A DNA stretch of 64,000 nt from TPA_inf: Saccharomyces (Eukaryota): positions 704,001-768,000 of the forward strand of contig BK006947.3 in the NCBI GenBank assembly GCA_000146045.2, read 5' to 3'. The translations under genes and the position numbers were made by a program. The stretch's first letter is position 1. Each line of letters opens with the position of its first letter. The notes under the pieces are model-generated. The model saw only the letters and a list, made by a program, of their open reading frames with translations. It did no database searches and had not been told where the DNA came from. Positions 26,381 to 26,401 of the stretch are shown in pieces.

Positions 26381-26401
26381 TCAACTTGGTAGTAATAGCA
26401 T
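26381..26401 (-). promoter_or_regulatory. Upstream ORF in the HOL1 5' leader encoding MLLLPS-stop (ATG CTA TTA CTA CCA AGT TGA), 195 nt upstream of the HOL1 AUG.
   Basis: Seen directly on the minus strand. It matches the polyamine-responsive Pro-Ser-stop uORF that I recall being reported for HOL1 translational autoregulation. Confidence 0.6.

Follow-up and report, generated by a model that had tools for sequence, protein, structure and literature searches.

A six-codon MLLLPS uORF upstream of Saccharomyces HOL1: gene context, conservation and a proline-to-arginine variant in S. eubayanus

Introduction

What does a reading frame of six codons do in the leader of a transporter gene? The question is raised by a short upstream open reading frame (uORF) in front of HOL1 in Saccharomyces cerevisiae, which encodes the peptide MLLLPS followed by a stop codon. 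Such an element could be a dedicated regulatory device, a general obstacle to scanning ribosomes, part of the promoter, or a chance reading frame without function. Here we describe the uORF and its surroundings in the window (the whole 64-kb stretch of DNA that was analysed), compare it with the corresponding loci of other yeasts, and weigh these readings against each other and against what has been published.

Results

The uORF and its neighbouring genes

The uORF, ATGCTATTACTACCAAGTTGA, is the reverse complement of window positions 26381..26401; reading and translating the minus strand from 26401 to 26381 gives MLLLPS and a stop codon, as the first-pass annotation had it. It lies on the same strand as the HOL1 main ORF, in the upstream region of the latter, and no ORF of at least 30 amino acids overlaps it on either strand. 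The features of the locus are the following.

26381..26401, minus strand: uORF MLLLPS-stop, six codons, at -215..-195 relative to the HOL1 AUG; matches the SGD feature
26381..26389, minus strand: Pro-Ser-stop (CCA AGT TGA), published as a termination motif that responds to eIF5A and polyamines (PMC11550727, PMC10855120)
26399..26407, minus strand: uORF start codon, TATTTC ATG C, with U at -3, a weak context
26187..26380, minus strand: ATG-free spacer of 194 nt between the uORF stop codon and the HOL1 AUG
24426..26186, minus strand: HOL1 coding sequence, 586 amino acids, MFS_1 transporter, the regulated main ORF
27618..29303, minus strand: BIO5 ORF, 561 amino acids, AA_permease_2, the next gene upstream of HOL1

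The 586-aa protein carries the Pfam domain MFS_1. It matches, at 100% identity, the representative of the Hol1p cluster of S. cerevisiae; the named members of this cluster are Hol1p proteins of numerous S. cerevisiae strains as well as of S. paradoxus, S. pastorianus and S. eubayanus. The downstream gene had thus been correctly named as HOL1, and the distances that had been given, 195 nt from the uORF to the HOL1 AUG and 1.4 kb to BIO5, agree with the 194-nt spacer and with an intergenic distance of 1431 nt. The length of this upstream region had also been taken to be in keeping with complex regulation; the length itself stands, and its link to regulation is only suggestive.

Homologues of the 561-aa protein are named Bio5p, YNR056C-like or "7-keto 8-aminopelargonic acid transporter". 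They are given as 531 or 550 amino acids long in many S. cerevisiae strain annotations and in S. paradoxus, and as 532 amino acids in S. eubayanus, which suggests that the true in-frame ATG of BIO5 is uncertain.

Agreement with a published and annotated element

The source of the HOL1 polyamine-switch mechanism is reportedly Vindu et al. 2021 (Mol Cell 81:3904), where changing Pro or Ser of the uORF to Ala, or synonymous recoding versus frameshifting of the uORF, is said to have abolished repression by polyamines selectively, with uORF translation being kept. SGD annotates a uORF of HOL1 (YNR055C) at chrXIV:730381..730401 on experimental evidence, citing Vindu et al. 2021. These coordinates are exactly those of the window (26381..26401) plus 704000, thus the window corresponds to S. 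cerevisiae chrXIV:704001..768000 and the uORF is the SGD-annotated one, and in sequence, gene, strand and coordinates there is no difference between the element in the window and the one described (Vindu et al. 2021; SGD). In other words, the HOL1 MLLLPS uORF is already known, it has been published and is part of the reference annotation, and finding it again brings no new biology.

The later literature gives a consistent picture of its function. By inhibiting eIF5A-dependent termination on the MLLLPS uORF, polyamines repress the synthesis of Hol1 (later papers; PMC10855120). The account in PMC11550727 describes a conserved Pro-Ser-stop motif and leaky scanning past the HOL1 uORF when polyamines are low, and impaired peptide release with a queue of ribosomes on the uORF when they are high; the same mechanism is briefly recounted in PMC9656687 and PMC11506843. 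The statement in the first-pass annotation that this very peptide had been reported for HOL1 proved right, since it is an SGD feature and MLLLPS is named for HOL1 in PMC10855120 and PMC11506843. The autoregulatory polyamine/eIF5A switch which the annotation offered as a plausible idea is the published mechanism rather than a new hypothesis (PMC11550727, PMC10855120, PMC9656687).

The uORF was considered functional before any link to polyamines was made (PMC1964767, PMC2813248). Cvijovic et al. 2007 (PMC1964767) scored it as conserved in 4/4 species and refer to Wright, Howell & Gaber 1996 for its role in regulation; a compilation from 2009 (PMC2813248) includes it in a list of 21 functional uORFs from genes that have been studied. 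The start-site and uORF tables in the supplements of PMC2813248 and PMC10259493, which we looked through, contained no HOL1 entry.

Start codons and the predicted transcription start

The uORF AUG has a U at -3, which is a weak context in yeast and would permit leaky scanning, the role assigned to it in PMC11550727. The uORF ATG is also the only one in the 480 nt of leader that precede the HOL1 AUG. In 2000 dinucleotide-preserving shuffles of the same 480 nt the number of ATGs was 4.64 +/- 1.72, and one or none was found with a probability of 0.026. Farther upstream ATGs are frequent, the whole 1431-nt intergenic region has 18. This pattern is expected if transcription takes in approximately the final few hundred nucleotides and the resulting leader permits this start codon as the sole upstream one. 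An AUG uORF of at most 11 codons ending with Pro-Ser-stop appeared in 0.55% of the 2000 shuffles.

Two other arrangements of start codons were considered and rejected. Reinitiation of the multi-uORF type known from GCN4 does not fit a leader with a single AUG uORF in its last 480 nt, and in S. eubayanus the more distal ATGs (-504 and -578) are missing. An N-terminally extended form of the uORF, starting at a near-cognate codon, would have an open frame up to -272, but the substitutions between species lack a coding signature.

A candidate promoter element lies upstream of the uORF.

26533..26540, minus strand: GATAAATA, TATA-like element with one mismatch to TATAWAWR, at -354; the only one between -700 and -215

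The usual spacing between TATA element and transcription start in yeast is 40-120 nt. Taken from -354, this spacing predicts starts at approximately -314..-234. Such starts would be 5' of the uORF, at the border of the conserved block described below, and in this respect the TATA-like element would fit an mRNA that begins before the uORF.

Conservation within Saccharomyces

Orthologous loci were found via exact-protein look-ups. Among their listed members, the 90% clusters of Hol1 and Bio5 offered sensu stricto sequences from S. cerevisiae, S. paradoxus, S. eubayanus and S. pastorianus only. The whole BIO5-HOL1 intergenic region was aligned for S. cerevisiae, S. paradoxus and two S. eubayanus copies, and three-way identity was calculated in 40-nt windows for S. 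cerevisiae, S. paradoxus and the chrXIV copy of S. eubayanus.

Across most of the intergenic region three-way identity was between 0.2 and 0.6. Between about -309 and -143 it was 0.72 or higher and had its maximum, 0.95, at -229..-190, that is, at the uORF, which makes this the best-conserved 40-nt stretch of the 1431 nt. Judged by this alignment, the uORF is the most constrained element between BIO5 and HOL1. The expectation that it would be conserved among the sensu stricto species held fully for S. paradoxus (L004), where an identical ATGCTATTACTACCAAGTTGA is found at -217, and in S. eubayanus it held for the frame and failed for the proline, which is replaced by arginine. Two conserved segments can be delimited in the intergenic region.

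26346..26476, minus strand: conserved block of ~130 nt around the uORF, about -290..-160
26734-26773, minus strand: second conserved island, GTTGTGTCATATGAAATTCTACGGATATTTTTAGGGAGC, -587..-548 of HOL1, 0.88 three-species identity

On either side of the uORF, 25 nt of flanking sequence are as conserved as its codons, which indicates that selection acts also on the nucleotides and not on the peptide only. Its targets may be, for example, the start context, the termination context or the region of transcription start. RNA structure could be ruled out as the cause of the conserved block: the 141 nt around the uORF have no stable fold (MFE -10.2 kcal/mol, weaker than that of shuffled sequences, z = +1.4), and Rfam gave no match within the HOL1 leader. 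The second island is probably a promoter element. It contains an ATG that opens the frame MKFYGYF-stop in S. cerevisiae and S. paradoxus and is ATA in S. eubayanus, hence it is no conserved uORF.

One scan of metagenomes for the uORF pattern gave matches in just two contigs, both of S. cerevisiae. In the S. cerevisiae metagenome contig OBMA010000847.1 a C-to-T change (L009:11418; GCTAGCATCC to GCTAGTATCC) is located 36 nt upstream of the uORF AUG. No other difference from the window was noticed in the stretch compared, which begins ~250 nt 5' of the uORF and takes in the first 20 nt of the coding sequence, and the uORF itself was invariant.

The variant of S. eubayanus

The S. eubayanus uORF, ATGCTATTACTACGAAGCTGA, reads MLLLRS-stop. 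The Pro codon CCA is replaced by the Arg codon CGA, and the Ser codon AGT by AGC, while position (-210 or -211), length, AUG and UGA are all kept. The variant is common to both S. eubayanus HOL1 copies and to two assemblies, thus conservation of the uORF proline is incomplete within the genus.

L005:2790-2810 and L006:2790-2810: uORF MLLLRS-stop, S. eubayanus chrVII-left copy, in two assemblies
L007:2789-2809: uORF MLLLRS-stop, S. eubayanus chrXIV copy

CGA is a rare Arg codon, which is poorly or slowly decoded in yeast. In the literature that we searched, MLLLRS was not found as a variant of the HOL1 uORF.

S. eubayanus has two BIO5-HOL1 segments. The segment at the left end of chrVII (L005 and L006) is ~30 kb from the contig end in a 1.1-Mb record, the other (L007) is in the syntenic chrXIV location. 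The two Hol1 proteins are separate sequences belonging to the same 90% cluster; the leaders of the two copies are nearly alike, and the loci are not identical in register.

HOL1 loci of other yeast genera

Ten HOL1 loci from outside Saccharomyces, representing nine distinct orthologues, were inspected over 700 nt upstream of the gene. They came from Zygotorulaspora mrakii (L001), Lachancea thermotolerans (L002), Kluyveromyces marxianus (L003), three yeast contigs (L012-L014), a K. lactis-type contig (L015) and Candidozyma auris (L016), and from two contigs of one 76%-identical orthologue (L010 and L011), for which the upstream sequence was just 330 nt long. In these upstream stretches an AUG uORF ending with Pro-Ser-stop was found at 0/10 loci, and a significant match to the 67-nt core likewise at 0/10. 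In the K. lactis-type contig there were a 16-nt match and an HPS-stop frame; a start codon is lacking, the match has an E value of 0.29 and the sequence is of low complexity, and we judged this to be due to chance. Within this sample the element thus seems to be confined to the genus Saccharomyces. Considered together with the Arg codon of S. eubayanus, the absence of the uORF from these ten loci suggests that the Pro-Ser-stop sensor is narrowly distributed.

Discussion

Identity and mode of action of the uORF

The uORF in the window is almost certainly the characterised polyamine-responsive regulatory uORF of S. cerevisiae HOL1, which encodes a high-affinity polyamine importer. Sequence, position, gene identity, start context, depletion of ATGs, conservation and lack of structure were established here, and the dependence on polyamines and eIF5A is taken from the literature by way of secondary accounts.

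Among the possible mechanisms the published one has the best support, and it runs as follows. A fraction of the scanning 43S complexes would initiate at the weak uORF AUG and translate MLLLPS, the release of which at Pro-Ser-stop would, according to the secondary accounts in the literature, require eIF5A. At low polyamine levels eIF5A would work and termination would be fast, and ribosomes leaking past the uORF would translate HOL1. The shortness of the uORF (six codons) and the 194-nt spacer without ATG might also allow some reinitiation. High polyamine levels would, by the same accounts, interfere with eIF5A and cause the terminating 80S ribosome to linger on the stop codon. With the stop codon in the A site, the P site would be on the Ser codon (-200..-198), and we infer that a footprint of 28-30 nt would cover approximately -212..-185, directly 3' of the uORF AUG. 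An 80S ribosome stalled just 3' of this AUG would form a roadblock, with a queue behind it, for all scanning complexes that arrive later, including the leaky ones. As a result of blocked scanning the synthesis of Hol1 would fall, and, since Hol1 imports polyamines, this would amount to negative feedback on polyamine uptake. The system is significant in that yeast regulates the uptake of polyamines as well as their synthesis: polyamines block termination on a very small uORF, and the HOL1 uORF is thereby a textbook-style case of a ribosome that senses a metabolite via eIF5A.

Other readings of the conserved uORF

It is conceivable, but in our view very unlikely, that the uORF is a generic constitutive damper, which captures scanning ribosomes regardless of the peptide, with polyamine control residing elsewhere. 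S. eubayanus does retain the uORF without the proline, the conservation of nucleotides reaches well beyond the codons, and the uORF was held to be functional before polyamines were implicated (PMC2813248, PMC1964767). The published regulation is, however, tied to eIF5A- and polyamine-dependent termination at Pro-Ser-stop, according to these accounts (PMC11550727, PMC10855120, PMC11506843, PMC9656687). Moreover, a damper of this kind would not need the near-invariant codons that S. cerevisiae and S. paradoxus share.

Even less credit can be given to the reading that the block is a DNA-level promoter or initiator of HOL1, the reading frame being incidental and situated outside the mRNA or at its extreme 5' end. 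We consider this extremely improbable, although the ~130 nt of conservation go far beyond the 21 nt of the uORF and the block starts with an A-rich CAAAAATAAAACAAG stretch, which is similar to yeast initiator regions. The ATG, the frame, the length and the stop codon are preserved in three species and competing ATGs have been purged from the last 480 nt, which makes a purely DNA-level element unlikely. In addition, the sole TATA-like element between -700 and -215, at -354, would predict starts upstream of -215, and the SGD annotation of the uORF is based on experimental evidence.

That the uORF is a functionless chance ORF of an AT-rich intergenic region has next to no probability: short ORFs are frequent, and six ORFs of the same pattern (AUG, at most 11 codons, Pro-Ser-stop) are present across both strands of the 64-kb window, but the per-leader frequency of 0.55%, the exact coincidence with the conservation peak and with the depletion of ATGs, and the published functional evidence (PMC11550727, PMC10855120, SGD) all speak against it, and conservation and literature together effectively refute it.

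Comparison with other metabolite-sensing elements

The polyamine-responsive uORF of HOL1 has analogues in the fungal arginine attenuator, in mammalian AMD1 and in AZIN1, which are not homologues of it. The fungal arginine attenuator peptide is encoded by the uORF of CPA1 or arg-2, and in the presence of arginine the terminating ribosome stalls on this uORF and blocks scanning to the main ORF. The stall is, as in HOL1, metabolite-dependent, peptide-specific and located at termination; the attenuator differs in being ~25 residues long and widely conserved in fungi, and in sensing arginine with no known link to eIF5A. Assignment of the HOL1 uORF to this class was rejected because it has only six codons and because no related uORF was found in Lachancea, Kluyveromyces, Zygotorulaspora, Candidozyma and four further orthologues. 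CPA1 and HOL1 appear side by side in uORF listings (PMC2813248, PMC1964767).

The uORF of mammalian AMD1 (S-adenosylmethionine decarboxylase) is closer in design. It also has six codons, it is present in an mRNA of the polyamine pathway, and polyamines slow down termination on it and thereby repress the main ORF (PMC10855120). Its peptide, MAGDIS, is unrelated to MLLLPS, and it regulates a biosynthetic enzyme, whereas the HOL1 uORF regulates a transporter. The Pro-Pro-Trp element of AZIN1 (Ivanov et al. 2018) shares with HOL1 the inhibition of eIF5A by polyamines, the resulting stall and queue of scanning ribosomes, and an mRNA of polyamine homeostasis (PMC11550727). It is, in contrast, long, has a non-AUG start and stalls elongation at PPW, the queue increasing initiation from its upstream start codon; the HOL1 uORF starts with AUG, has 6 codons and stalls termination.

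Implications of the proline-to-arginine change

The comparison between species provides the only new point of this work: the critical proline is not invariant in Saccharomyces, and the uORF is absent from the HOL1 leaders of the other yeast genera examined. The two observations constitute a natural test of which residues or nucleotides the sensor needs. One reading of MLLLRS-stop is that S. eubayanus may have lost or retuned the polyamine/eIF5A control of Hol1. Alternatively, and this is speculation, the stall could have been kept by way of CGA decoding or of a termination context acting at the nucleotide level. If the stall has been preserved by such another route, the functional unit would be the conserved block of ~130 nt rather than the peptide alone. 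It is tempting, yet rather doubtful, to suppose that the Pro-Ser-stop sensor arose recently in a part of the genus Saccharomyces and is evolutionarily labile.

Other features of the window

A few further elements were noticed in the window.

12115-12284, plus strand: snR49 H/ACA snoRNA, full-length Rfam match, 195.3 bits
17938-18211, minus strand: snR191 H/ACA snoRNA, full-length Rfam match, 298.7 bits
22133-22218, minus strand: tRNA-Leu (anticodon UAA), ~2.2 kb downstream of the HOL1 stop codon
256-647, plus strand: tandem repeat, 21-nt unit x18.7, 80% matches, inside the ORF at 47..1876

The tandem repeat encodes a Ser/Thr-rich unit of 7 residues, which is typical of a cell-wall or agglutinin-type protein.
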